Virus record (IMG/VR): IMGVR_UViG_2870495154_000003
DNA: 60,319 nucleotides
Source of the DNA: a virus
Lineage: Duplodnaviria > Heunggongvirae > Uroviricota > Caudoviricetes
Strand: one strand, 5' to 3'
The position numbers and the translations under genes were made by a program. The notes under the pieces are model-generated. The model saw nothing but the letters and a program-made list of their open reading frames with translations. It had not been told where the DNA came from and did not search any database. Positions 3,000 to 52,521 of this stretch are shown in pieces. Numbering within the stretch: position 1 is the stretch's first letter; every line of letters begins with the position of its first letter.

Positions 3000-3422
3000 T
3001 TAAAACGGTATATTATCGCCGTACGGATCATCATTCCCCGACTGTTGTTTTGCCCTGTTCAGTGCGTCAGTGGCCTGCCCCTGCTGGCCTTTTTTGCCGC
3101 CCGGTCGCGCCGTTCGCGCACTGATTACACTGTCTGCGATAACCTGCCAGCCCTGCCGCGTTTCGCCGTTCTGGCCTGTCCACTGGCTTACCTGCATGTT
3201 ACCCGCCACGCTCACCAATTCGCCTTTGTGGTGTTTTGCCAGTGCGTCGGCCTGTCTGCCAAACGCCAGGACGGATAACCACATCGTCGCCGTTCCGTCA
3301 TCTGCCTGGCTGCACGGCAGGGGAACCGCCATACTCGCCATCGCCATTTGTGTCCCTTTGCTGGTGGTCTTTAACTGCGGGTCAGCCACCAGCCGCCCGT
3401 AAGCCGCTATCTGTGCTGTCAT
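3000..3422 (-). CDS. ssb: Single-stranded DNA-binding protein (140 aa)
   Basis: OB-fold-like core (WLSVLAFGRQADALAKHHKGELVSVAGNMQVSQWTGQNGETRQGWQVIADSV), Gly/Gln-rich linker and acidic C-terminal tip DDPYGDNIPF, comparable to E. coli SSB ...DFDDDIPF. ATGA overlap with the upstream ORF. Confidence 0.8.
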   Translation of the reverse strand: MTAQIAAYGRLVADPQLKTTSKGTQMAMASMAVPLPCSQADDGTATMWLSVLAFGRQADALAKHHKGELVSVAGNMQVSQWTGQNGETRQGWQVIADSVISARTARPGGKKGQQGQATDALNRAKQQSGNDDPYGDNIPF

Positions 3423-3664
3423 GCTGTCTGCTCTCCGGTTTTAACGTTGATGGTTGTCACCTGTTCCGCTTCGGCAATCTCCCGTTCTGTCAGCGTGGCA
3501 AAGTTTGCAGCTGCCGTTGTCATGAATGAGCTAATCAGTTCGGGATGTGCTTTCGCATATCCTTCCCCGGCGTTGCGGTCGATGATTTTTATCGACACCC
3601 TTAACCAGTGTTCCGTCAAATCAAGGGCGTGCGATTGTGATTTTTTTGTGTGCTTCGCTGTCAT
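3419..3664 (-). CDS. Hypothetical protein (81 aa), translationally coupled to ssb
   Basis: ORF in track; its stop overlaps the ssb start (ATGA). No recognisable motif. Confidence 0.45.
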   Translation of the reverse strand: MTAKHTKKSQSHALDLTEHWLRVSIKIIDRNAGEGYAKAHPELISSFMTTAAANFATLTEREIAEAEQVTTINVKTGEQTA

Positions 3665-3712
3665 AGGCTTTATCTCACAGCAGTAAATTAAAATTTTTGC
3701 GTTTTAACCCTT

Positions 3713-3937
3713 CACCTGTTCACCTTTTGATATTTTATCTTTTAATTCATAATGTTAAGGGGTGAACAGTTTCACAAAAACTATTCACCAACTGTTCACC
3801 ACTGTTCACCCTTGAAGCTCAATAAACAATCAAAAAGGTGAACAGTGAATAGTTTGGTGAACAGTTCATAAATAACTGTTCACCCTATAACATACTGATA
3901 CAAAAGATATTTATGACAGGGTGAACAGTGGTGAACA
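3713..3937. repeat. Iteron cluster / putative replication origin: about 9 copies of GGTGAACAG in both orientations in AT-rich DNA
   Basis: GGTGAACAG or CTGTTCACC at roughly 3716, 3762, 3793, 3803, 3838, 3859, 3877, 3919 and 3929, directly 3' of the primase-helicase gene. Recurs in every copy. Confidence 0.7.
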
Positions 3938-3951
3938 GTTATTCCATAAGT

Positions 3952-5769
3952 TTAATTTTTGCTATCGTCATTAGTGACCGATACACATGATGGCATCCAG
4001 TCTTCTGATTCCTCCGTCAGTGTCACGTTTGAACGCAAACCGTGCTTCGTTTTCCGTTTCATATACTCCCTGCCATATTCCGCCATTGCCCCCGGCATAT
4101 CTTTACCGAAGCGCGTCAGTGTTACAGGTTTACCAAACCCATGTGCCTTCATATAAGCCAGATAGGCATGATAGAGATACCTGCGCGGGCTGAATGGCAC
4201 AATTTCAGCATTACCCACTAACAGGCCATCACACATTACCGACGCCATGAGATAGCCGCAGAAGTCCACCAGCGAATCACCTTCACGCTTTATCGCGAGT
4301 GCTTCTTCTGATTTCTGCTGCTCATATAAAAGGCGTCTGGCTTCGTCCTGGTCAGCAAACCGTGTAAGCAGATGACGAATCACTACCGCCAGCTCACCTT
4401 CTATTTTTTCCGCCAGCATTGAATCGCGTTCGTTCTCCGGTACAACTTCCGAAAAATTGAATATCACCCGACGGCGCGAGATCCCCCCACTGCGGTCACT
4501 GAATGACATAGCGTTATTGTTAACCGCCAGCACTACTGCCGGGATACGCGTTGAATATGGGGCTTTATGTTTTGGGTCGATTGCCACCTTGTCACCGCCT
4601 GTAATAGCCTTAATTCCCGCCCCATCACCAGCGTAGCGGGTCATATCCGGCATGATAATCAGCGAAAAGCCAACCACTAACGCGCGTTCCCTTGCATCTT
4701 CCAGCGCCTTCATGCTCGCTGATACTGTATTAGCCTTACCCGCCAGCATGGTGCAAATCTCCGCCATCACGCTTTTACCACTTCCCCCTGGACCTGTTAC
4801 CTCAATGAATAACTGCCAGTCGTACCGGTTCGCCAGCACCATGAATAATGCAGCCAGTACGCGATCCGCCTTGCGGTCATTCTCAGCCACCGAACGGCGT
4901 AACCACTTCCAGAAATTCGGCGCATGTGTTGCCAGCGTTTCCCCCTCTGCTGGTGGGCTGAAAGGTAATTCACTGGCAATTAACAACCAGTCGTTTTTGT
5001 TATGCTCCCGAAAATTACCTGTTCTGGTATCAAATACCCCGTTACTGAATCCAATCAGGTTACGGGCTGTATTCCCCATTACAGGCAAACTTAACTTCAT
5101 GGTATCGACCGCCGATTTAATGGCGTTCTGCGAATAGCTGATCTCCGCATCAATGAAAATCTGTGCCATAGCTCGCTGTAATTCTTTATCCTGTACTGGC
5201 TCCCATACAACGCCGTTGTAATGGTGAACAGTGTCAGAGTCAGCATGAATCGCCAGTTCACCGCCATAATGTGCCAGGAGAACTTCGCCGCGTTGACTTG
5301 CTCCCATCTGGTTAAGCGCCAGTGATGAAGCGTTATCGTCTTTTACCCGCTCTTTTTTCTTTACAGGCAGTTCAACTACCTTTTTCTTTTCCGCCAGCTC
5401 TCCCCGCTCACGTTCCAGATATTCGCGCCAGTTCTCCCGTTTCTGGCTGTGCATTCCTTCAGGGTAATAATCAGCATCCCTGACACCTGCCGCTGCCAGT
5501 TTCTGCCCGATGGTATTAACAAGCCCCGGACGCAATAACCCCGCCTGGTAGAGACGCACGCGATAGCGTCCGTCCGGTACGATTTGCAGGTTGTCCAGTT
5601 CGGCAAGTTGTTGCTCTCCAAGCCAGACAGGTGGCACGTTATCGCCAGCCAGTCGCCCGTCCTGTTCCTGCCACTGCGTCGCATGTGCCCACGCATCACT
5701 ACCCGCAAAAATGATGACTTCCGTCATTTTGTCACGCGGCTGGTGTTTTAAATTTGGCGCTTTTTTCAT
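3952..5769 (-). CDS. Primase-helicase, P4-alpha / D5-type (605 aa)
   Basis: ORF 3952..5784 trimmed to the ATG at 5767..5769 (GGAGAGAG SD; ATGA overlap with upstream ORF). Walker A GPGGSGKS in the C-terminal NTPase region; overall layout typical of satellite/PICI primase-helicases. Confidence 0.85.
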   Translation of the reverse strand: MKKAPNLKHQPRDKMTEVIIFAGSDAWAHATQWQEQDGRLAGDNVPPVWLGEQQLAELDNLQIVPDGRYRVRLYQAGLLRPGLVNTIGQKLAAAGVRDADYYPEGMHSQKRENWREYLERERGELAEKKKVVELPVKKKERVKDDNASSLALNQMGASQRGEVLLAHYGGELAIHADSDTVHHYNGVVWEPVQDKELQRAMAQIFIDAEISYSQNAIKSAVDTMKLSLPVMGNTARNLIGFSNGVFDTRTGNFREHNKNDWLLIASELPFSPPAEGETLATHAPNFWKWLRRSVAENDRKADRVLAALFMVLANRYDWQLFIEVTGPGGSGKSVMAEICTMLAGKANTVSASMKALEDARERALVVGFSLIIMPDMTRYAGDGAGIKAITGGDKVAIDPKHKAPYSTRIPAVVLAVNNNAMSFSDRSGGISRRRVIFNFSEVVPENERDSMLAEKIEGELAVVIRHLLTRFADQDEARRLLYEQQKSEEALAIKREGDSLVDFCGYLMASVMCDGLLVGNAEIVPFSPRRYLYHAYLAYMKAHGFGKPVTLTRFGKDMPGAMAEYGREYMKRKTKHGLRSNVTLTEESEDWMPSCVSVTNDDSKN

Positions 5770-6059
5770 TTCTGCTCTCTCCACGCGGCAATCATGTTTT
5801 TCAGTTCCTGTAGTTTTTTATCCACACGTGACACATGGTTATTTCTGGAAAGCGGGATTTCCCGCCTGAATCTGCTAATAAAGATCTCCACGTTCAGCGA
5901 ACTATGAAATGAATAGCCATCACGAATAAAATAAACACGGTCAAACATCAGTTCTTTTACCGTTACTCTGTTACCGTTCTTATCCAGATAAATAGCGCCG
6001 GGGATAATTTTTGGGTGTGCATAACCGCTGGCAGTCAAGCCAGATAAATATGTTCTCAT
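5766..6059 (-). CDS. Hypothetical protein (97 aa), translationally coupled to primase
   Basis: ORF in track; stop overlaps the primase ATG; GGGGA SD upstream. Confidence 0.5.
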   Translation of the reverse strand: MRTYLSGLTASGYAHPKIIPGAIYLDKNGNRVTVKELMFDRVYFIRDGYSFHSSLNVEIFISRFRREIPLSRNNHVSRVDKKLQELKNMIAAWREQK

Positions 6060-6065
6060 GATTAT

Positions 6066-6386
6066 TTATCCCCGATTTGAATCAGTATTCGCTTTCTTTA
6101 TGGCATTTAATGCATCTGTGGCATTTTCAATGGTGCACCGTAACGAAATATCAAACTGCCCAAGCATTGCCAGTAACAAGCCAATATTCCCCATGTCAAT
6201 GCGCATAGCCTTTTCGTCATATTCCTCATTTTCTGACGCATGCCACATCAGGCTACCAATTGACGCAACAGCCATTGATATATTGTCAGTAGCCCCATCC
6301 GCAGCGGAATAAACCTTTTTAGCAATATCATGCTCACAGTTAAAATGCGGATTAATCAGGTACTGGTAATTTGACATATCAGGCAT
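6066..6386 (-). CDS. Hypothetical protein (106 aa, [15 protein letters not shown]...)
   Basis: C-terminal part of ORF 6066..6821; the upstream part of that ORF is Pro/Arg/Leu-rich and looks off-frame. ATG at 6384..6386 overlaps the stop of the upstream ORF (ATGCCTGA). Confidence 0.45.
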
Positions 6387-6918
6387 GGCACACCCCCTGG
6401 CGAATACGGGCGGCGAATACAGCAACACAACCGGACGGGCAGCGGTTACGCGCTTCACGTTCCGTCCAGGCGGTGACGTGGATGATTTGATGGTCTGACG
6501 CGCCAAAGATGATAAAGCGCCAGAGAAAGGCGGTTTGAGAATGTACAAGGGTAGGGATAGTAGCCATGTTGGCAGCCTCCTTTGACAGTGAAGAATTTCC
6601 ACCGCAGGAAACGCCAATTTCGCTGGCGGTGGACTGAACGGGGTTGGCGTAACCGGCGTCAAAGGGAACCGGCGCTTCCGAAGAAGCCCCCGCCCAGCCC
6701 ACCATAACTTTGATGTGAGCGAATGCGGACGATAAAAAAGACGCTGGCGCGTCATATATCGCCTTTGACATTTCCAGGACGCCAATCCCGGCACCAGATT
6801 TTGCTGGTGCGGATAAATCATAGCCCTGGCTTGCAGTGGCGATCAACTGGTTTTTTACACCCGCTTTATTCAGGTTGTGCGAGTCCCGCCCTTGCGGGTG
6901 TGTGGTATGATTTCTCAT
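6379..6918 (-). CDS. Hypothetical Ala/Gly/Ser-rich protein (179 aa; alternative 62-aa start at 6567 with AGGAGG SD)
   Basis: 3' part of the 429-aa ORF 6379..7668; in-frame ATG at 6916..6918 with GAGG SD, just beyond the divergent operator region. Confidence 0.3.
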
Positions 6919-7015
6919 AGCGACCTCGATACTATCGTTATCGTTGGTGGTTAGAAGCCCCGTTACTGCTCCAACAGTGCGGGGTTTCGTCGTTTCTGCA
7001 CCTTGCATCAACAAG

Positions 7016-7067
7016 GTGTTGAACACCAATGTAAACTCAGGTGTTGAACACGTCAAGTGTTGAACAC
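7016..7067. promoter_or_regulatory. Operator-like array: three copies of the 11-bp palindrome GTGTTGAACAC
   Basis: Sites at 7016..7026, 7041..7051 and 7057..7067, in the ~200-bp divergent intergenic region between minus-strand ORF start 6918 and plus-strand ORF start 7118. Recurs in every copy. Confidence 0.6.
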
Positions 7068-7117
7068 TTGTTTTTTTTCCTGCATACTGCATTTGTTTTT
7101 TGTGAGGGGTACACAAC

Positions 7118-7297
7118 ATGGCGACAAAAGCAGTAAACGCAAAATCACAAACAGTTGCGGCAAGGGTTCCGCATGAAGTTATGAACAATGTTGAGGCGGT
7201 AAAAATGCCTGGTGAAAGTACAGGGCAATTTGTAACAGCAGCATTAAAGCGAGAAGTTGAATACCGCCAGCGACGCAAGGCTAAAGAGCAAGAATAA
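7118..7297 (+). CDS. Small ribbon-helix-helix-like DNA-binding protein (59 aa), putative regulator
   Basis: Not in the ORF track (below 60 aa). ATG at 7118 with GAGGGG SD 7 nt upstream; translation [59 protein letters not shown]; directly downstream of the palindromic operators. Confidence 0.55.
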
Positions 7298-7354
7298 TCA
7301 CTATCAGCGCTGTGGTGTGAGGTACTCCGGCGCATTGCTTTACAGGTCGGCACT

Positions 7355-7564
7355 ATGAGCAAAAAATACCTATCCACTGAAGAGATTTTCGCAGAACAAC
7401 GAAGATTGCTTTTACAGAGCATTGTTGCACGCCAGAAAGAAAAGGCACACGCTAAACAAATGCCACCAAATACAGAACCAGCGCCTACAAAATTTGCGCT
7501 TGATGAGTTTCTCAATAAACAGCCCCGGGTAATGAAAGCTAACAGGAACCGCCCACCAGGCTGA
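7355..7564 (+). CDS. Hypothetical protein (69 aa)
   Basis: ORF in track, co-oriented with the RHH gene and followed by a plus-strand terminator. Confidence 0.4.
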
Positions 7565-8307: not shown

Positions 8308-9546
8308 TCAAGAATTTTGGGTGTAAATTCGCGGGGTCATAACAACGATTTTTTCATCATTGTTCTGGAGAAGCTCGAGACGGTCTACCCATAGATTAAG
8401 AGCATCACGTTTTGCATCAAGATAACGGGAGTGGTTATAGACTCGTTGCATCCCCGGCATCTGGTGGGCGGTAAGCTGCTCGACAATATGCGGATCCACG
8501 CCTAAATCGTTCAGCATGGTTGTAAATGTGTGCCGGATGTCATGCAACGACCAGGGGGCTTGATTAATGCGTCTGTGTGCCGTTCTTCCGTACTCTGCTA
8601 CGGATGATTGCCCTTTCAGTTCTCCAAGCAATAAGCCCGTGTGCCTGTTCTTCTCCACCAGCTTCATGACAAACGGCAAGATCGCTTCCGGTATTGGCCT
8701 GAATATTGCTACCTTCGTTTTGCTGTGTTCTTTCGGCACAGTCCAGAGCATTTCTTTAAAATCCCATTCCTGAACCTCGGAGCGTCTTAGCTCAGTGGTA
8801 CGGCATCCAAAGACAATCAGAAGGCGAATTAAGGCGCTGTAGTACGGCGGGAAAATTTTTTCATCCAGTGCGCGGAGTAGCTCGCCAAGCTCCTTGTTTG
8901 TTAGCACTCGCTCGCTTATTTCTGCTTTTTTTCCCACATCACCTACGACCATATCATCAAGAACGTTACTGACGGCGTAGCGACGTTTACGGCAGTACTT
9001 AAGCGCCTGCTTGCATACCTGCAACAAAAAGCCGGCTGATACCGGATTACGCTTAGCAAGCTGGTCAAAACAGGCCAGCCAGTGGCGTAGCTCGCATTTA
9101 TCCAGCGGCATAGCACCAATCTGGCTGATTATGTGCTTATTGATACGGCTTTTCAGTGATTCGTGGTCAGTGCGCTTTTCCTTCGCATACGACTCAAGCC
9201 AGTAAGTGAGCGCGTCCTTAACCGTCACAGGGGCTAACGCTTCCTGCACTGTGTGATTAAGCTCATGGCGTGGATTTTTCCCCTCCGCCAGCCAGGCGCG
9301 ACACTGTGCCGCTTTTTCCCTGGCTGCTTTCAGGCTCAGATCGGGATAGTTGCCCAGTCTCAGGCGTTCCGGTGATACCTGCCTGCCAGTTCCGGCCCTG
9401 TAAGTGAAATACCAGGTTAACAGGCCGCTGGTGGAATGTCTTACGCTAAGATTGCCACCGTCATTAAAAAAGGCGTTTTTTGTGGTTGGTGATCCGCTTA
9501 ATTTTCGTAAAAGAGTGTCGCTAAGTCTATGAATTGCGCTGCTCAT
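8308..9546 (-). CDS. int: Tyrosine recombinase / integrase (412 aa)
   Basis: C-terminal catalytic region with R...HxxR...Y signature (RTAHRR..., HDIRHTFTTML..., MQRVYNHSRYL); P4-like length and layout. Confidence 0.9.
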   Translation of the reverse strand: MSSAIHRLSDTLLRKLSGSPTTKNAFFNDGGNLSVRHSTSGLLTWYFTYRAGTGRQVSPERLRLGNYPDLSLKAAREKAAQCRAWLAEGKNPRHELNHTVQEALAPVTVKDALTYWLESYAKEKRTDHESLKSRINKHIISQIGAMPLDKCELRHWLACFDQLAKRNPVSAGFLLQVCKQALKYCRKRRYAVSNVLDDMVVGDVGKKAEISERVLTNKELGELLRALDEKIFPPYYSALIRLLIVFGCRTTELRRSEVQEWDFKEMLWTVPKEHSKTKVAIFRPIPEAILPFVMKLVEKNRHTGLLLGELKGQSSVAEYGRTAHRRINQAPWSLHDIRHTFTTMLNDLGVDPHIVEQLTAHQMPGMQRVYNHSRYLDAKRDALNLWVDRLELLQNNDEKIVVMTPRIYTQNS

Positions 9547-9573: not shown

Positions 9574-9645
9574 ACTACACCATTGACTACACCGTGCATC
9601 GTACAAGGGCAAACCGTGACGAACAATATCGAACAACCGCGAACA
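9574..9645. promoter_or_regulatory. Direct repeats upstream of int: ACTACACC x2 (9574, 9586) and CGAACAA x3 at 10-bp phasing (9619, 9629, 9639)
   Basis: Read directly from the sequence, 30-100 bp upstream of the int start codon. Confidence 0.4.
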
Positions 9646-9987
9646 AAGATCAACACGCTTTAATCATTATCATTTTCCGGCTATCCGTCATGAAGCTGGT
9701 GGATGATCTGCGTGGTGATTTCCACCATTCAGAGCAGGGGCGGTCATCATGACCATGCCATAACAAAAACCCCATATTCGTGGTTTTTCTGTGTCGGGGC
9801 TATTCTGCTGTTGCCGTGCTGGTGGATATTCTCCGGTATGCGGCTCCCCATATCGGCATCAGGCCCACCAGCGTGAAGCGTTTTTCATTTTTCGCGGGTA
9901 TAAAAAATCGATGGGGCTGGCAGTCCTGAAGACGTCAGGGTACAGAGATTTGACCCGCCCCTCCCTGTGCATGAGCACAATAAGTAA

Positions 9988-10011
9988 CCGAAGGCGGAAT
10001 TCCGCCCTCGG
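9988..10011. other. Perfect 14-bp palindrome GGCGGAATTCCGCC within an imperfect 24-bp inverted repeat
   Basis: Read directly from the sequence, in the non-coding region between the 124-aa ORF and int. Confidence 0.5.
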
Positions 10012-10073
10012 TACTTACATATGAGAAACGATATTTCTTCCACCGATACCCTTTATTTGGGTATTGCGAGTAA

Positions 10074-10152
10074 GCCCCAAAATCTGGGTGTTACTCTTAC
10101 TACCCAAACTACGGGTAGTTTCCGTAGTTTCATGGTCGAGTTGCAAATCTGC
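10074..10152. other. Cluster of three consecutive stem-loops (9-bp stem AAACTACGG / CCGTAGTTT; 6-bp GTTGCA / TGCAAC; 7-bp AACGCAA / TTGCGTT)
   Basis: Read directly from the sequence; 50-130 nt beyond the stop of the minus-strand ORF 10203..10577. Confidence 0.45.
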
Positions 10153-10202
10153 AACTCACCCACCAGCCAACGCAATTTTGCGTTATCGGGAATATCAGCA
10201 AG

Positions 10203-10577
10203 TTACCGCCGCAGTCGTTCCGGCTTCTTCCACTGGTAAGTATTTTTCGCGCTCTCCCTCCGTTGTTGAGAACGGCGACGGTATGCCAGCAACTCAAGGA
10301 CTCTGGTTCGTATGTTGCGCATATCCACGCCGTTAAGCTCAATACCATCACGGCGCATCACCTCAGCAACAACACGCGCGTAATTTTCGGCTATCACGCT
10401 GTCCGGCTGCGTGGCCTCCTGTTCGCCAGCCTGCTGGCTGATTCCGGTAATACTGCGGATTATCCCGAGCGCTTCGGTCTCGGTCATGGTCATGGCCTCC
10501 ATAGTGATGGCGGGTCCTCCTTGTGGGGTGCCCTGCCACGGGGCGGGAGCATCGCGGAAAAAGGCTAGTTTTTGCAT
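10203..10577 (-). CDS. Hypothetical protein (124 aa; probable true start at 10485..10487 giving 94 aa)
   Basis: ORF in track, last gene downstream of TerS on the minus strand. GGAGG SD is best spaced (8 nt) for the third in-frame ATG (MTETEALGIIR...). Confidence 0.4.
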   Translation of the reverse strand: MQKLAFFRDAPAPWQGTPQGGPAITMEAMTMTETEALGIIRSITGISQQAGEQEATQPDSVIAENYARVVAEVMRRDGIELNGVDMRNIRTRVLELLAYRRRSQQRRESAKNTYQWKKPERLRR

Positions 10578-10738: not shown

Positions 10739-11281
10739 TTACTTGTCTTTATCCGACTGAAACTTATCAGGCACATTTCCGGTAGTTTCCATCAGATAAT
10801 CGGACAGCATTCGCGGGATGTTTTCATCAAGTTTTGTGCATGCGTTACAGGCTCTGACAACTTCTTTTTTCAGGCCATCCAGCATGGCGGGGGTCATCTG
10901 TGGGAAGCTCCTTTGCATAGTAAGCGGCAGGCTGCCCATGATTGAAGAAATCTGACTCGCCAGTTTTGAAAGCGCATATATACAAAATTCCGTACTAATC
11001 ACATCGCCGCGTTCGCGCTCGTTTTTAAGCTCCTGCGCCTCCGCCTGCGCTGTCAGCAATCTGATCCTGACTCGCAAAAGCTCATCATTATCAATCTCGC
11101 CTTTGTCGTCTGTAATCTGGTTAATTGCATTGCTAACCCGATTGTCTATTACGCTGGCAACATCATAAAACGCCTCGCGGCCTTTACGTTCAACGGGAGT
11201 CACTCCCCACTTGTCGAACGCTGTCGCACTTACACGGCAGCTTTGCGCCATGTTTTTTTTGTTCATCAGGTGCGATTTCAT
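10739..11281 (-). CDS. Terminase small subunit, Nu1-like (copy B)
   Basis: Identical translation to 252..794. Confidence 0.8.
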   Translation of the reverse strand: MKSHLMNKKNMAQSCRVSATAFDKWGVTPVERKGREAFYDVASVIDNRVSNAINQITDDKGEIDNDELLRVRIRLLTAQAEAQELKNERERGDVISTEFCIYALSKLASQISSIMGSLPLTMQRSFPQMTPAMLDGLKKEVVRACNACTKLDENIPRMLSDYLMETTGNVPDKFQSDKDK

Positions 11282-11482
11282 CAATATCCCCACTTAAGTA
11301 ATGTTTCAGGTTGGTGTATTGGCTTTATCTTTTCCTTTTTATTCATAGAGATAGAGCGAACAACAAAACCACCACCAGCACCCGAAAAAGGCTCATAAAT
11401 AGCGAAAACCCGCGAGGTCGCCGCCCCGTAACCTACCGGATCGCCGGAAAGGACCCGCCAGCCAGAACGGGCCCTAATTTCA

Positions 11483-11877: not shown

Positions 11878-12217
11878 TTACACACGAGCCAGCGGCTGAA
11901 CAGAAATACCTGAGCCAACAAACGCGGCAACCTTTGCCGACAGTTCTTTTACAGACTCAGGCCAGTTCAGAGCATCAACATTTAAAACACCTGTCTTATA
12001 AACCTGTGCCTGTGTTTTTTTCGCTGTGTCGATTTGTACAGCGGAAACATAAACCGCTTTACCTACGCTCGAACCATCCCATACCACCAGTGCACCTGTT
12101 GCATCTTCCTGCATCAGTGGCGTAAATGCAGGAATTACCCTTTATTAGCTGAAAATATCCCAGCGTAGTCACCAGTGCTTCAGTGCCAGCCATGAGTTCA
12201 GTGTAATGAGTAGCCAT
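11878..12217 (-). pseudogene. gpD-like decoration gene, frameshifted in copy B
   Basis: Two 1-bp deletions in C-runs (near 12139 and 12160) relative to other copies; the track shows only a 78-aa ORF 11878..12114. Confidence 0.6.
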
Positions 12218-12225
12218 TGCTCCCC

Positions 12226-13271
12226 TTAGCCAATGCGAACGGTAACAAAACGATTGATGCGGGCCGGTATTGGCTGTGGTGCTGAATGTGTCTGCACATA
12301 TTCAATAGCCGGATCACCAGGCACAATATAGTTTTTCGGTGCAAGTTCGGCTTTAGTCAGCCCCATTCGGATTAGCTCCGGATCCTGAATACCGCCATAG
12401 GCGACAATCCCTGAAGAGCCGTATTGCCAAGCACCATCAAATCAGGATCAAGGAAATGTTTTTCTGTTCCGTCCTCGTCGGTATAACGCCCGCTGTAAAC
12501 AACAATCGCAACATCGCCCATATACCCTTTAAAACTCACCGAATCACCAAGGTCTTTAAGGGCCGTTTCCAGTTCGGAATTAGAACCACGACGGGTATCC
12601 AAAGCCTCTTTTATCGCTCTGAATGAACGGTATTTCTTCCATACATTACCACCCATAATGATGATATTAGTGACGCCCTCACTAAATTCTGCGTAGCTCT
12701 CAATATCATCATTTGGATCAAAAGTTTCTTTATCCTTACCTGACCACTCAGTACCGCCAGACTGAGTGATGATATTTTGTGGTTTTATATTCCAGTCCAG
12801 CTCATAACGTTCAATACCATCGCCCTCAATGATATTTTTCCCCGTTGTGATTGCCTGAACAGCAAGCCATTCAATACGTGCACGAATAGCTTTAGCCTGA
12901 TTTACAATCGCCTGTTTAACTTTAATATTACGCGCCCCAAAAGCATTGTATTGCTCAGGTGACACACCAGCAGGGCGCACAGCTAACTTATTTGGATCAA
13001 TGCTGCTTTTCGGCTTCATATAACCTGGACGAATTGTTTTTGATTCGTATCCCTCATCTCGTGAAACTTTACTGCCCACCATAGGAGAGCAAAACGCCGC
13101 GATCGGGATATTTGGATCGTCGATCGTATCAAGAATAATGTCTCTCGATTCAAACATTACCGAGCGAGTGAAAAACAAACTGGTAAACAACGCATTTAAT
13201 TTTTTTTGCACATCTTCAGCATTAGCCACCTGCACAAGCTGTGTAGGCGAATATAAATCAACCATACTCAT
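12226..13271 (-). pseudogene. gpE-like major capsid gene, frameshifted near its 3' end in copy B
   Basis: 1-bp deletion in a C-run near 12419; ORF 12372..13352 has an altered C-terminus (...ALQGLSPMAVFRIRS) versus other copies. Confidence 0.6.
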
Positions 13272-13482
13272 CCTCTTTACATTCATTACAAATAATTGTG
13301 AATATATTCTATTACCGATGTCTGCTATGCGAATACATGCAACCAAGTGCAATGTTGTATAAAATATGCCGTAACAACTTCAGTGCTGATAATTCGTGTT
13401 AATGTATTTACTTCCTTTGGTCGGGATTTATGTAGCATGCCGGAAAATCTATTTTTTTCCGGCATCTTTTTGTTTGCAGAAT

Positions 13483-20685: not shown

Positions 20686-21060
20686 TTACCGCCGCAGTCG
20701 TTCCGGCTTCTTCCACTGGTAAGTATTTTTCGCGCTCTCCCTCCGTTGTTGAGAACGGCGACGGTATGCCAGCAACTCAAGGACTCTGGTTCGTATGTTG
20801 CGCATATCCACGCCGTTAAGCTCAATACCATCACGGCGCATCACCTCAGCAACAACACGCGCGTAATTTTCGGCTATCACGCTGTCCGGCTGCGTGGCCT
20901 CCTGTTCGCCAGCCTGCTGGCTGATTCCGGTAATACTGCGGATTATCCCGAGCGCTTCGGTCTCGGTCATGGTCATGGCCTCCATAGTGATGGCGGGTCC
21001 TCCTTGTGGGGTGCCCTGCCACGGGGCGGGAGCATCGCGGAAAAAGGCTAGTTTTTGCAT
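20686..21060 (-). CDS. Hypothetical protein 124 aa (copy B/C junction)
   Basis: Identical to 10203..10577. Confidence 0.4.
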   Translation of the reverse strand: MQKLAFFRDAPAPWQGTPQGGPAITMEAMTMTETEALGIIRSITGISQQAGEQEATQPDSVIAENYARVVAEVMRRDGIELNGVDMRNIRTRVLELLAYRRRSQQRRESAKNTYQWKKPERLRR

Positions 21061-31172: not shown

Positions 31173-31547
31173 TTACCGCCGCAGTCGTTCCGGCTTCTTC
31201 CACTGGTAAGTATTTTTCGCGCTCTCCCTCCGTTGTTGAGAACGGCGACGGTATGCCAGCAACTCAAGGACTCTGGTTCGTATGTTGCGCATATCCACGC
31301 CGTTAAGCTCAATACCATCACGGCGCATCACCTCAGCAACAACACGCGCGTAATTTTCGGCTATCACGCTGTCCGGCTGCGTGGCCTCCTGTTCGCCAGC
31401 CTGCTGGCTGATTCCGGTAATACTGCGGATTATCCCGAGCGCTTCGGTCTCGGTCATGGTCATGGCCTCCATAGTGATGGCGGGTCCTCCTTGTGGGGTG
31501 CCCTGCCACGGGGCGGGAGCATCGCGGAAAAAGGCTAGTTTTTGCAT
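31173..31547 (-). CDS. Hypothetical protein 124 aa (copy C/D junction)
   Basis: Identical to 10203..10577. Confidence 0.4.
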   Translation of the reverse strand: MQKLAFFRDAPAPWQGTPQGGPAITMEAMTMTETEALGIIRSITGISQQAGEQEATQPDSVIAENYARVVAEVMRRDGIELNGVDMRNIRTRVLELLAYRRRSQQRRESAKNTYQWKKPERLRR

Positions 31548-41659: not shown

Positions 41660-42034
41660 TTACCGCCGCAGTCGTTCCGGCTTCTTCCACTGGTAAGTAT
41701 TTTTCGCGCTCTCCCTCCGTTGTTGAGAACGGCGACGGTATGCCAGCAACTCAAGGACTCTGGTTCGTATGTTGCGCATATCCACGCCGTTAAGCTCAAT
41801 ACCATCACGGCGCATCACCTCAGCAACAACACGCGCGTAATTTTCGGCTATCACGCTGTCCGGCTGCGTGGCCTCCTGTTCGCCAGCCTGCTGGCTGATT
41901 CCGGTAATACTGCGGATTATCCCGAGCGCTTCGGTCTCGGTCATGGTCATGGCCTCCATAGTGATGGCGGGTCCTCCTTGTGGGGTGCCCTGCCACGGGG
42001 CGGGAGCATCGCGGAAAAAGGCTAGTTTTTGCAT
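41660..42034 (-). CDS. Hypothetical protein 124 aa (copy D/E junction)
   Basis: Identical to 10203..10577. Confidence 0.4.
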   Translation of the reverse strand: MQKLAFFRDAPAPWQGTPQGGPAITMEAMTMTETEALGIIRSITGISQQAGEQEATQPDSVIAENYARVVAEVMRRDGIELNGVDMRNIRTRVLELLAYRRRSQQRRESAKNTYQWKKPERLRR

Positions 42035-52146: not shown

Positions 52147-52521
52147 TTACCGCCGCAGTCGTTCCGGCTTCTTCCACTGGTAAGTATTTTTCGCGCTCTC
52201 CCTCCGTTGTTGAGAACGGCGACGGTATGCCAGCAACTCAAGGACTCTGGTTCGTATGTTGCGCATATCCACGCCGTTAAGCTCAATACCATCACGGCGC
52301 ATCACCTCAGCAACAACACGCGCGTAATTTTCGGCTATCACGCTGTCCGGCTGCGTGGCCTCCTGTTCGCCAGCCTGCTGGCTGATTCCGGTAATACTGC
52401 GGATTATCCCGAGCGCTTCGGTCTCGGTCATGGTCATGGCCTCCATAGTGATGGCGGGTCCTCCTTGTGGGGTGCCCTGCCACGGGGCGGGAGCATCGCG
52501 GAAAAAGGCTAGTTTTTGCAT
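52147..52521 (-). CDS. Hypothetical protein 124 aa (copy E/F junction)
   Basis: Identical to 10203..10577. Confidence 0.4.
   Translation of the reverse strand: MQKLAFFRDAPAPWQGTPQGGPAITMEAMTMTETEALGIIRSITGISQQAGEQEATQPDSVIAENYARVVAEVMRRDGIELNGVDMRNIRTRVLELLAYRRRSQQRRESAKNTYQWKKPERLRR

Follow-up and report, generated by a model that had tools for sequence, protein, structure and literature searches.

What is the last small open reading frame (ORF) of a phage satellite's packaging operon for, when it resembles none of the packaging proteins next to which it lies? The question is raised by a 60,319-nucleotide stretch of DNA (hereafter the window), recorded as a virus of the Caudoviricetes (IMG/VR record IMGVR_UViG_2870495154_000003). 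The window (1-60319) consists of 5.75 head-to-tail copies of one 10,487-bp phage-inducible chromosomal island (PICI) of Escherichia coli. A preliminary description, made from the letters alone, had flagged an ORF at 10203-10577, downstream of the small terminase gene terS, as a candidate accessory factor acting in packaging, in helper interference or as cargo. We found, with high confidence, that this ORF is a real, conserved and non-essential PICI gene. The gene is already catalogued (WP_001710151.1; PHROG 1561; c1505 of the prototype island EcCICFT073) and functionally blank. The best overall explanation is that it is a backbone PICI gene encoding a non-essential accessory protein that binds nucleic acid, a tentative reading to which we give a probability of about 0.3; binding through the basic C-terminal third of the protein is predicted with low confidence. 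The accessory role is thus retained in this guarded form, and packaging, interference and cargo are each weakened by the evidence presented below.

Gene model and conservation of the ORF

The reading frame was confirmed on the sequence, from 10577 down to 10203, and lies on the minus strand, which corrects the preliminary description. It is open for 124 codons from an ATG at 10577 and for 94 codons from an ATG at 10487, and it ends with a TAA stop codon at 10203-10205. The features that define the gene are the following.

10203-10487, minus strand: gene proper, 94 amino acids (MTETEALG...YQWKKPERLRR) plus stop codon, PHROG 1561 / EcCICFT073 c1505 family
10482-10493, minus strand: (ATGACC)2, a hexamer repeat that runs across the start codon
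10496-10500, minus strand: Shine-Dalgarno sequence GGAGG, 8 nt 5' of the ATG at 10487, read from the sequence
10488-10577, minus strand: in-frame upstream extension (the 124-amino-acid reading), not conserved and lying over a cos remnant
20686-20970, 31173-31457, 41660-41944 and 52147-52431, minus strand: identical copies of the ORF in the tandem concatemer

A product of 94-124 amino acids had been proposed. The 94-amino-acid form, which begins with MTETEALGIIRSITG as originally given, is supported, and the 124-amino-acid form is not. The frame is open from the ATG at 10577, and several gene callers return forms of 122-133 amino acids (P0001-P0027), but it is very improbable that the long reading is the true product. 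Residues 1-30 of this form show no conservation at the protein level, the open upstream stretch varies between 2 and 73 codons among relatives, and the extension is the reverse strand of the cos remnant; the first 31 residues match another PHROG, 35283. In addition, the GGAGG precedes the ATG at 10487, and RefSeq gives an identical (100%) coding sequence of 285 nt, annotated as hypothetical (WP_001710151.1). Homologues that lie 9-17 nt after terL or terS begin at the methionine equivalent to M31, and those of capsid-forming PICIs (cf-PICIs) and other closely spaced homologues are all 91-94 amino acids long. The extension (10488-10577) is probably untranslated as part of the protein. The ORF is identical in all five complete copies of the unit and recurs at five places because the window is a tandem concatemer. 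In near-identical islands (L011, L012, L014), three to five ATGACC copies give a variable (Met-Thr)n N-terminus, and the number of copies alters the spacing between the Shine-Dalgarno sequence and the possible start codons.

The PHROG 1561 profile matches the ORF end to end (positions 1-93 of 93 against residues 31-124 of the long form, E=1.1e-50), and this family is labelled as being of unknown function. Hundreds of E. coli and Shigella proteins are 84-100% identical to the ORF, and its homologues fall into 981 clusters at 90% identity, every one of them named hypothetical or prophage protein. At 50% identity, an exhaustive HMMER search of 1.84 billion representatives gave 37 clusters only, all enterobacterial and most of them fragments or frame variants of the ORF's own family, which leaves no remote homologue whose function might be borrowed. 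The DNA of the ORF is present in 1595 of 5426 complete E. coli genomes. A scan of GTDB species representatives gave one locus, in Shigella, and a tblastn search of a phage collection returned a single weak and unannotated match, in a Klebsiella 'phage' record; given this nearly empty result, the family is essentially satellite-borne.

Absence or disruption of the ORF in otherwise conserved relatives had been named as the observation that would refute the initial proposal. Among 94 fetched loci, 90 of 92 homologue copies are intact at 91-94 amino acids and the remaining two end at contig ends, so that all 90 assessable copies are kept and none is disrupted. The ORF shares with its family both this length and a characteristic C-terminal end, since 79 of the 90 copies finish in YQ/HWKKPERLRR, and the core and the C-terminal motif are retained in Citrobacter and Salmonella relatives with 41-49% identity. 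Purifying selection on the ORF is indicated by pairwise dN/dS, which is 0.17-0.46 over nine loci that represent three island types (dS reaches 0.77). ORFs on the plus strand (e.g., 10263-10568) were set aside, as the selection signature fits the minus-strand frame. These data already effectively refute the idea that the ORF is no gene and merely reflects non-coding DNA that is conserved for another reason, for example through its association with cos or att. The lack of an assigned function, the empty domain and fold searches and the conserved non-coding elements that flank the region would suit this idea; against it, synonymous change is 2-6-fold greater than non-synonymous change, the length is fixed at 91-94 codons with 90 undisrupted copies, and the protein is conserved down to the 41-49%-identical homologues of other genera.

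The ORF follows whichever packaging-specificity gene the island carries

The surroundings of the ORF comprise the terminase gene, two cos sites of unequal preservation and the attachment site.

8308-9546, minus strand: int, just beyond the att core
9619-9636, no strand: att core, the 18-bp overlap of both chromosomal junctions and the joint of the excised or concatemeric island
10509-10557, plus strand: decayed inverted second cos, the counterpart of the intact EcCICFT073 cos2, from alignments
10739-11293, minus strand: Nu1-type TerS (Pfam Phage_Nu1, E=1.2e-21; PHROG 57, E=1.5e-50; RefSeq start 11281)
11415-11426, minus strand: exact lambda-type cosN GGGCGGCGACCT of the functional cos, upstream of terS

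The ORF had been described as the terminal gene of the packaging operon, downstream of TerS and co-transcribed with the hijacking module. Its position holds: the Nu1-type small terminase gene (10739-11281/11293, minus strand) lies upstream, and no further ORF separates it from the att core, 567 bp beyond the stop codon (9637-10202). Co-transcription is probable, as neither a sigma-70-like promoter nor a terminator was detected on the minus strand of the 251-nt spacer between terS and the ORF. The gap to the preceding terL, terS or Rpp-like gene is just 9-17 nt in many relatives. The distal location in the late region, next to att, is also found in the islands of loci L002-L009; those of L093/L094 are one exception.

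Three architectures share this arrangement. The gene is the last before att in TerS-type islands inserted between clpS and cspD, in the prototype EcCICFT073 by phoQ, where it comes straight after rppA and cos2, and in cf-PICIs at phoQ, allC and tqsA, where it starts 5-13 nt after an HK97-type terL. Among 80 IMG/VR loci, the upstream neighbour is a cf-type TerL in 30, a Nu1-type TerS in 28 and an Rpp/c1501-like gene in 12; in a Citrobacter island, the homologue lies 15 nt after a gene of 153 amino acids. Hence, the ORF follows whichever packaging-specificity gene the island carries, be it TerS, Rpp or TerL. Because it is conserved across PICI types with differing integrases, att sites and packaging systems, the ORF is a satellite backbone gene independent of all three, and a cargo role is weakened by the same distribution.

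The EcCICFT073 homologue, c1505 (WP_000133413.1), illustrates both the constancy and the variation of this arrangement. Like the ORF, it is full-length (93 against 94 amino acids, with about 78-80% DNA identity), it is the last gene before att, it carries the C-terminal YxWKKPERLRR, and repeat units consisting of an IHF-like site and a hairpin begin at its stop codon. Unlike the ORF, which comes after terS and a decayed cos2, it is preceded by rppA and an inverted cos2 that is intact, its island resides at phoQ rather than at clpS|cspD, and it has a different variant of the C-terminal helix (NRRVALYRETEKITYH against RRRSQQRRESAKNTYQ). The terminal ORF of EcCIEDL933-like cf-PICIs, islands that build their own capsids, likewise ends its island's gene order ahead of att, has a DNA identity of about 79% and is followed by the same kind of downstream units, but it is coupled to an HK97-type terL (5-17 nt gap) with no cos2 in between.

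In the window lineage, the second cos has decayed. Both the island's own cos and EcCICFT073 cos2 can be aligned with the plus strand at 10509-10557, which retains a cosQ-like sequence (GGCGGGTCCTCC, also written GGCGGGTCC) and has a cosN-like GGGCGGGAGCAT with mismatches at 4 of 12 positions. In EcCICFT073, as in many islands of the Rpp and TerS types, an intact inverted cosN precedes the start of the homologue by 65-76 nt. The EcCICFT073 cos2, whose sequence is given in the supplement of PMC6739421, lies at 3298-3309 (minus strand) of locus L009 and is functional in that island (PMC6092414). In much of the family, an inverted cos pair brackets the packaging-specificity gene. A module made up of specificity gene, inverted cos2 or its remnant, ORF, IHF-like/hairpin units and att is firmly supported.

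Such a location invites the idea of a cofactor of packaging efficiency, non-essential in itself, that aids cos recognition or cleavage, terminase assembly or the handling of cos-proximal DNA. This idea, one of the two main rivals of our reading, is possible and, on balance, doubtful. The ORF is always found about 0.1-2.2 kb from cos or the terminase region, in lambda-type islands it lies 65-76 nt from the inverted cosN or its remnant, and the 9-17 nt gap after terL, terS or the Rpp-like gene suggests translational coupling in many islands. However, the gene is associated with three unrelated specificity systems: a Nu1-type TerS; Rpp together with the TerS of the helper; and a P27-type TerS with an HK97-type TerL and HNH. 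The family also occurs in islands without a terminase gene (L093/L094), which makes a specific motor partner hard to picture. A partner dedicated to one motor is unlikely, given that the gene is found beside packaging machineries unrelated to each other and also where an island has none.

Published constructs bear directly on this point. The supplement of PMC6739421 lists primers, whose positions we determined on the CFT073 sequence (locus L009). The c1504-07::cat allele replaces 3104-4001 of this locus and removes the whole homologue (3374-3655) and about 350 bp downstream. Strains with this allele appear to be the lambda and phi80 lysogens whose island served as the reference ('wild type') of the transfer assays in that study. 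As the cat allele removes the homologue from a transfer-proficient reference, the gene is therefore non-essential for lambda- and phi80-mediated transfer, which weakens the packaging role. From the literature and the primer mapping, we conclude that the homologue is non-essential for induction, packaging, transfer and the recovery of transductants in laboratory conditions.

The same mapping addresses helper interference. A protein similar to Ppi of the SaPIs (pathogenicity islands of Staphylococcus aureus) would block the helper TerS in favour of the island's own, and an island that encodes a TerS would profit from such a factor. Moreover, the ORF adjoins the island terS as ppi does in operon I of the SaPIs (PMC6739421). 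A role of this kind is nonetheless very unlikely. The insert of pBAD18-c1505 corresponds to L009 3317-3690 and encloses the homologue, and lambda plaque formation was left unreduced by this clone; only c1503 (rppA) reduced it (PMC6739421). From these reports and the primer positions, the homologue expressed alone does not inhibit lambda. In addition, the gene is present in Rpp islands, where Rpp already interferes, and in cf-PICIs, whose reproduction is reported to be free of cost to the helper. SaPI Ppi and E. coli Rpp are, like the ORF product, small helical proteins encoded beside the packaging-specificity gene of a satellite, but they have no sequence similarity to it, and Rpp is a separate upstream gene in EcCICFT073. 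Membership of the Rpp family was rejected: Rpp proteins have 144-153 amino acids and a TerS-like DNA-binding domain and are encoded just downstream of cos1, and the ORF product has 94 amino acids and is unrelated. A solved structure of RppC has been reported in the Rpp paper.

In a cf-PICI, transfer is severely reduced when 'hypothetical gene 1792' is lost. We considered whether this gene is the counterpart of the ORF and rejected the assignment: counting in gene order from the capsid gene (1786) puts 1792 between HNH and terS, where it corresponds to a 60-amino-acid ORF. By the same numbering, the terminal ORF of the cf-PICI would be gene 1795. No published test of gene 1795 came to light, and the ORF apparently lies outside the genes reported for the published cf-PICI packaging-module mutants, a point that also speaks against a packaging cofactor.

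Some loci depart from the common arrangement. At 8001-9130 of L093/L094, a 105-amino-acid homologue with a different N-terminus is followed by a Q-type antiterminator gene, in an island that has no capsid or terminase genes and carries AntA, Ash, a DUF927 primase, SSB, a ProQ-like protein and PerC. L049 contains, at 5986-7526, two homologues of the ORF at a distance of about 1 kb and separated by a TerS-like fragment, an arrangement that points to remnants of island right ends in tandem or nested order. As for the TerS of the window, it matches Phage_Nu1 in its C-terminal part only (profile positions 78-161), and its N-terminal ~65 residues have no match to the Nu1 DNA-binding domain, which is consistent with a swapped cosB specificity.

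The protein and the structured repeat at its stop codon

The protein had been described as uncharacterised and without similarity to lambda head or packaging proteins, and our searches bear this out. The homology and structure searches that had been advised identified its family, PHROG 1561, and gave no function from either sequence or fold. Scans of the ORF and 28 family members with Pfam, NCBIfam and PADLOC gave nothing above threshold, a sequence search of the PDB gave no match to the ORF, and fold searches with the predicted model were uninformative. A sub-threshold PADLOC match to BrxA (E=0.0093, 13.9 bits, 50 of 200 profile positions) has similarly weak equivalents in 17 of 28 close relatives. 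BrxA membership, which calls for a significant match over the ~200-residue two-domain profile or fold, was rejected: no Pfam family was found at E<=0.03 in any member of the alignment, and BrxA was not among the listed fold-search matches.

AlphaFold2 predicts three helices (residues 3-14, 29-46 and 53-83), with a helical-hairpin core at pLDDT 84-89 and a linker (15-28) and tail of low confidence. Counted on the sequence, the net charge is about -5 for residues 1-58 and about +10 for residues 59-94; the model has an acidic front and a strongly basic rear that ends in Y-x-W-KKPERLRR. Invariant or nearly invariant positions comprise Y36, V39, V40, A41, M44, G48, N52, D55, I59, R60 and R62 in the core, and R70-R72, R76, Y84, W86, K88, P89, L92 and R93 in the basic tail. 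Among them, Y84 and W86 never vary and the KKPERLRR end hardly does, in the Citrobacter and Salmonella relatives as well.

A small protein with an acidic N-terminal half might also be a factor for establishment, anti-defence or modulation of the host, useful in natural recipients or lysogens and irrelevant in K-12 crosses. The gene is indeed dispensable in K-12, C600 and 594 crosses and confined to mobile islands of Enterobacteriaceae. Furthermore, packaging from the inverted cos2 would make it the last gene packaged and the first injected, reading inwards, if the orientation that we infer is correct. Several observations weigh against such a function, the other main rival, which we consider unlikely. 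The ORF is highly conserved across islands, while loci for defence or counter-defence usually form variable hotspots; PADLOC offers only the sub-threshold BrxA match; no promoter-like site lies upstream of the ORF; and the gene has been kept intact in the window lineage though cos2 has decayed.

Two features adjoin the ORF on its 3' side.

10164-10205, minus strand: repeat unit beginning with the stop codon, with TAACTTGCTGATA, hairpin ACGCAAAATTGCGT and TGGCTGG
9987-10163, minus strand: hairpin-rich 3' region, ending in a terminator-like stem-loop at 10012-9987

The first triplet of the unit is the stop codon TAA of the ORF. Each unit consists of TAAC-nnn-YTGATA, a short hairpin ~10 nt later and then GGCTGG or GTCGG, and the reverse complement of TAAC-nnn-YTGATA fits the IHF consensus WATCAAnnnnTTR. 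In our own count from the alignment, about 14 of 36 distinct units have the perfect consensus WATCAANNNNTTR beside the palindrome and about 11 have one mismatch. The window unit resembles the consensus at TAACTTGCTGATA with one mismatch (TATCAGCAAGTTA) and represents a predicted site, by sequence match. The hairpin stems vary in sequence yet stay complementary (CGCAA/TTGCG, CCTCA/TGAGG, CAGCC/GGCTG, CCCCC/GGGGG, GTGCA/TGCAC and others, at least 10 different stem sequences), with a mean perfect stem of 4.25 bp against 2.75 bp in shuffled sequences (maximum 3.22 in 1000).

The window island has one unit, and other islands have up to 4-6 in tandem (L002, ~6600-7003; L009, 3653-3900), the later ones repeating the ...GGCG(C)GG-TAAC junction of the ORF end. 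In every locus examined, up to 45 kb, the strict motif occurs only downstream of the ORF and on its strand; some homologues have no recognisable units. No covariation was seen between the variant of the C-terminal helix and the type of the first unit. Units were found in 957 of 5426 genomes, at a median of one place per genome and a maximum of five, and for this median we rejected the possibility that they are dispersed repeats of the repetitive extragenic palindrome (REP) or bacterial interspersed mosaic element (BIME) kind. The resemblance to repetitive IHF-binding palindromic (RIP) elements and BIMEs lies in an IHF-consensus-like site beside palindromic hairpins, arranged head to tail at a non-coding operon end; the difference is that the units are not dispersed and, in the fetched loci, are confined to the region downstream of the ORF. 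Their palindromes are presumably not REP sequences. Rfam contains no family for the structured 3' region or the unit at either gathering or permissive thresholds.

In the window lineage, the unit is followed by ~190 nt of further hairpins. The minus strand of 9960-10215 (256 nt) folds as RNA at -114.5 kcal/mol (z=-9.8); the 3' regions of other lineages are milder, with a median z of -2.2 against -0.3 in controls. Several perfect or near-perfect palindromes are found within 9960-10215, where the terminator-like hairpin lies ~350 bp before the att core and int. In the excised form of the island, a single strand carries the ORF, the hairpins, attP and int in collinear arrangement, and no promoter-like site is predicted between the ORF and int.

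How these elements fit the nucleic-acid-binding accessory can be outlined. This reading is favoured because the only invariant surface of the protein is the basic tail with its Trp and Tyr residues. The tail (residues 59-94, ending in Y-x-W-KKPERLRR) would contact nucleic acid, and its target would be the segment that starts at the ORF's own stop codon, either as the 3' untranslated region of the RNA or as DNA. In the excised or concatemeric island, the protein might tune 3'-end formation or read-through towards int; alternatively, it might tune the architecture of the DNA beside attP. A place in the packaging motor is not expected. Further reasons for this reading are that the stop codon of the ORF is joined to a structured repeat that was found nowhere else, and the collinear arrangement of ORF, hairpins, attP and int, for which no intervening promoter-like site is predicted. 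In the specific mechanism, 3'-end or att-proximal action, our confidence is low.

A bolder version, which we hold to be rather improbable, is that the ORF and its stop-codon array form one conserved module common to otherwise unrelated PICI classes. The Arg-rich, Trp-containing tail of this small bipolar protein would bind the hairpins of the units as RNA or as extruded DNA, and binding would, in the excised, circular or concatemeric island, control the read-through of the late operon across attP into int, or an attP architecture bent by IHF. A functional analogy can be drawn with lambda N and boxB, in that the Arg-rich helix ends in Q/H-W-K and adjoins a same-strand array of short hairpins; unlike boxB, these hairpins lie downstream, at the end of the operon and not in its leader, and no boxA-like element was identified. 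By eye, RRR..RR..K...QWK resembles the arginine-rich motif of lambda N, which we take as a lead only, and BLASTP against the lambda N sequence gave no alignment. The ORF product was accordingly rejected as an antiterminator with an N-type arginine-rich motif: its basic segment is C-terminal, and the hairpins are at the 3' end of the operon.

The island that carries the gene and its meaning for satellites

In the chromosome of E. coli, the element resides between clpS and cspD/yljB (L001). All island genes are on the minus strand, with int first and the ORF last: int (9546-8308), an AlpA-type regulator, a region matching C4 antisense and isrK RNAs, an Icd-like gene, a primase, SSB, head genes resembling those for lambda gpE and gpD, a second AlpA-like gene, the exact lambda cosN (11426-11415), the Nu1-type TerS and the ORF. 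This gene set agrees with that of the Gram-negative PICIs of Fillol-Salom et al. (PMC6092414, PMC6739421), and the element has what characterises a PICI: a size of ~10-15 kb, int, alpA, primase/replication and packaging-hijack genes and att repeats, with no tail or lysis genes. Hence, it is a TerS-encoding variety of Gram-negative PICI. TerS-type islands of E. coli were transferred poorly (PMC6092414), and the head-to-tail concatemer may be an indirect sign of helper induction or transfer, the sole one in the window.

Repeat analysis resolved six in-register copies with spacings of 10,483-10,488 bp, and Rfam matches reappear across the window each ~10.49 kb. Six single-base indels in homopolymers, five of them runs of C and the other a run of A, are the only differences between the copies, and the ends of the contig are not located at cos. 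The window gives the impression of a long-read concatemer or of an over-assembled circle, and not of a single packaged molecule, and the differences between copies look like long-read error on a concatemeric or circular template. Four of the indels frameshift the gpD/gpE-like genes of the second copy. There (11878-13352, minus strand), the gpD-like and gpE-like proteins have 78 and 326 amino acids, against 113 and 346 in RefSeq, the reading frames being shortened by single-C deletions at ~12134, 12156, 12220 and 12408 that the other copies do not have; this truncation is a sequencing artefact and not the result of pseudogenisation. At 6622-6810 (minus strand), and again every 10,487 bp, Rfam finds a C4 antisense RNA (82 bits) beside an isrK Hfq-binding RNA (75 bits), both inside a stretch that carries the annotation of an Icd-like cell-division inhibitor gene. 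The pair suggests a P1/P4-style antisense-RNA immunity module in the PICI of the window.

Among Enterobacteriaceae, PICIs are major carriers of genes for virulence and defence, and their packaging strategies, such as Rpp and the capsids of cf-PICIs, have been dissected gene by gene. The ORF is among the few genes common to the Rpp-type, TerS-type and capsid-forming classes, and the published constructs that touch its homologue are markers rather than tests of function. Any function of the ORF would therefore belong to the common life cycle of these satellites and not to one hijacking mechanism. Being conserved, under selection and paired with a repeat, the ORF offers a defined target for a clean knockout. 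The ORF-plus-repeat module would gain in interest if proven to be a satellite-wide regulatory device; in that case, it would represent a satellite-specific switch, with no described counterpart, that ties late expression to integration competence.

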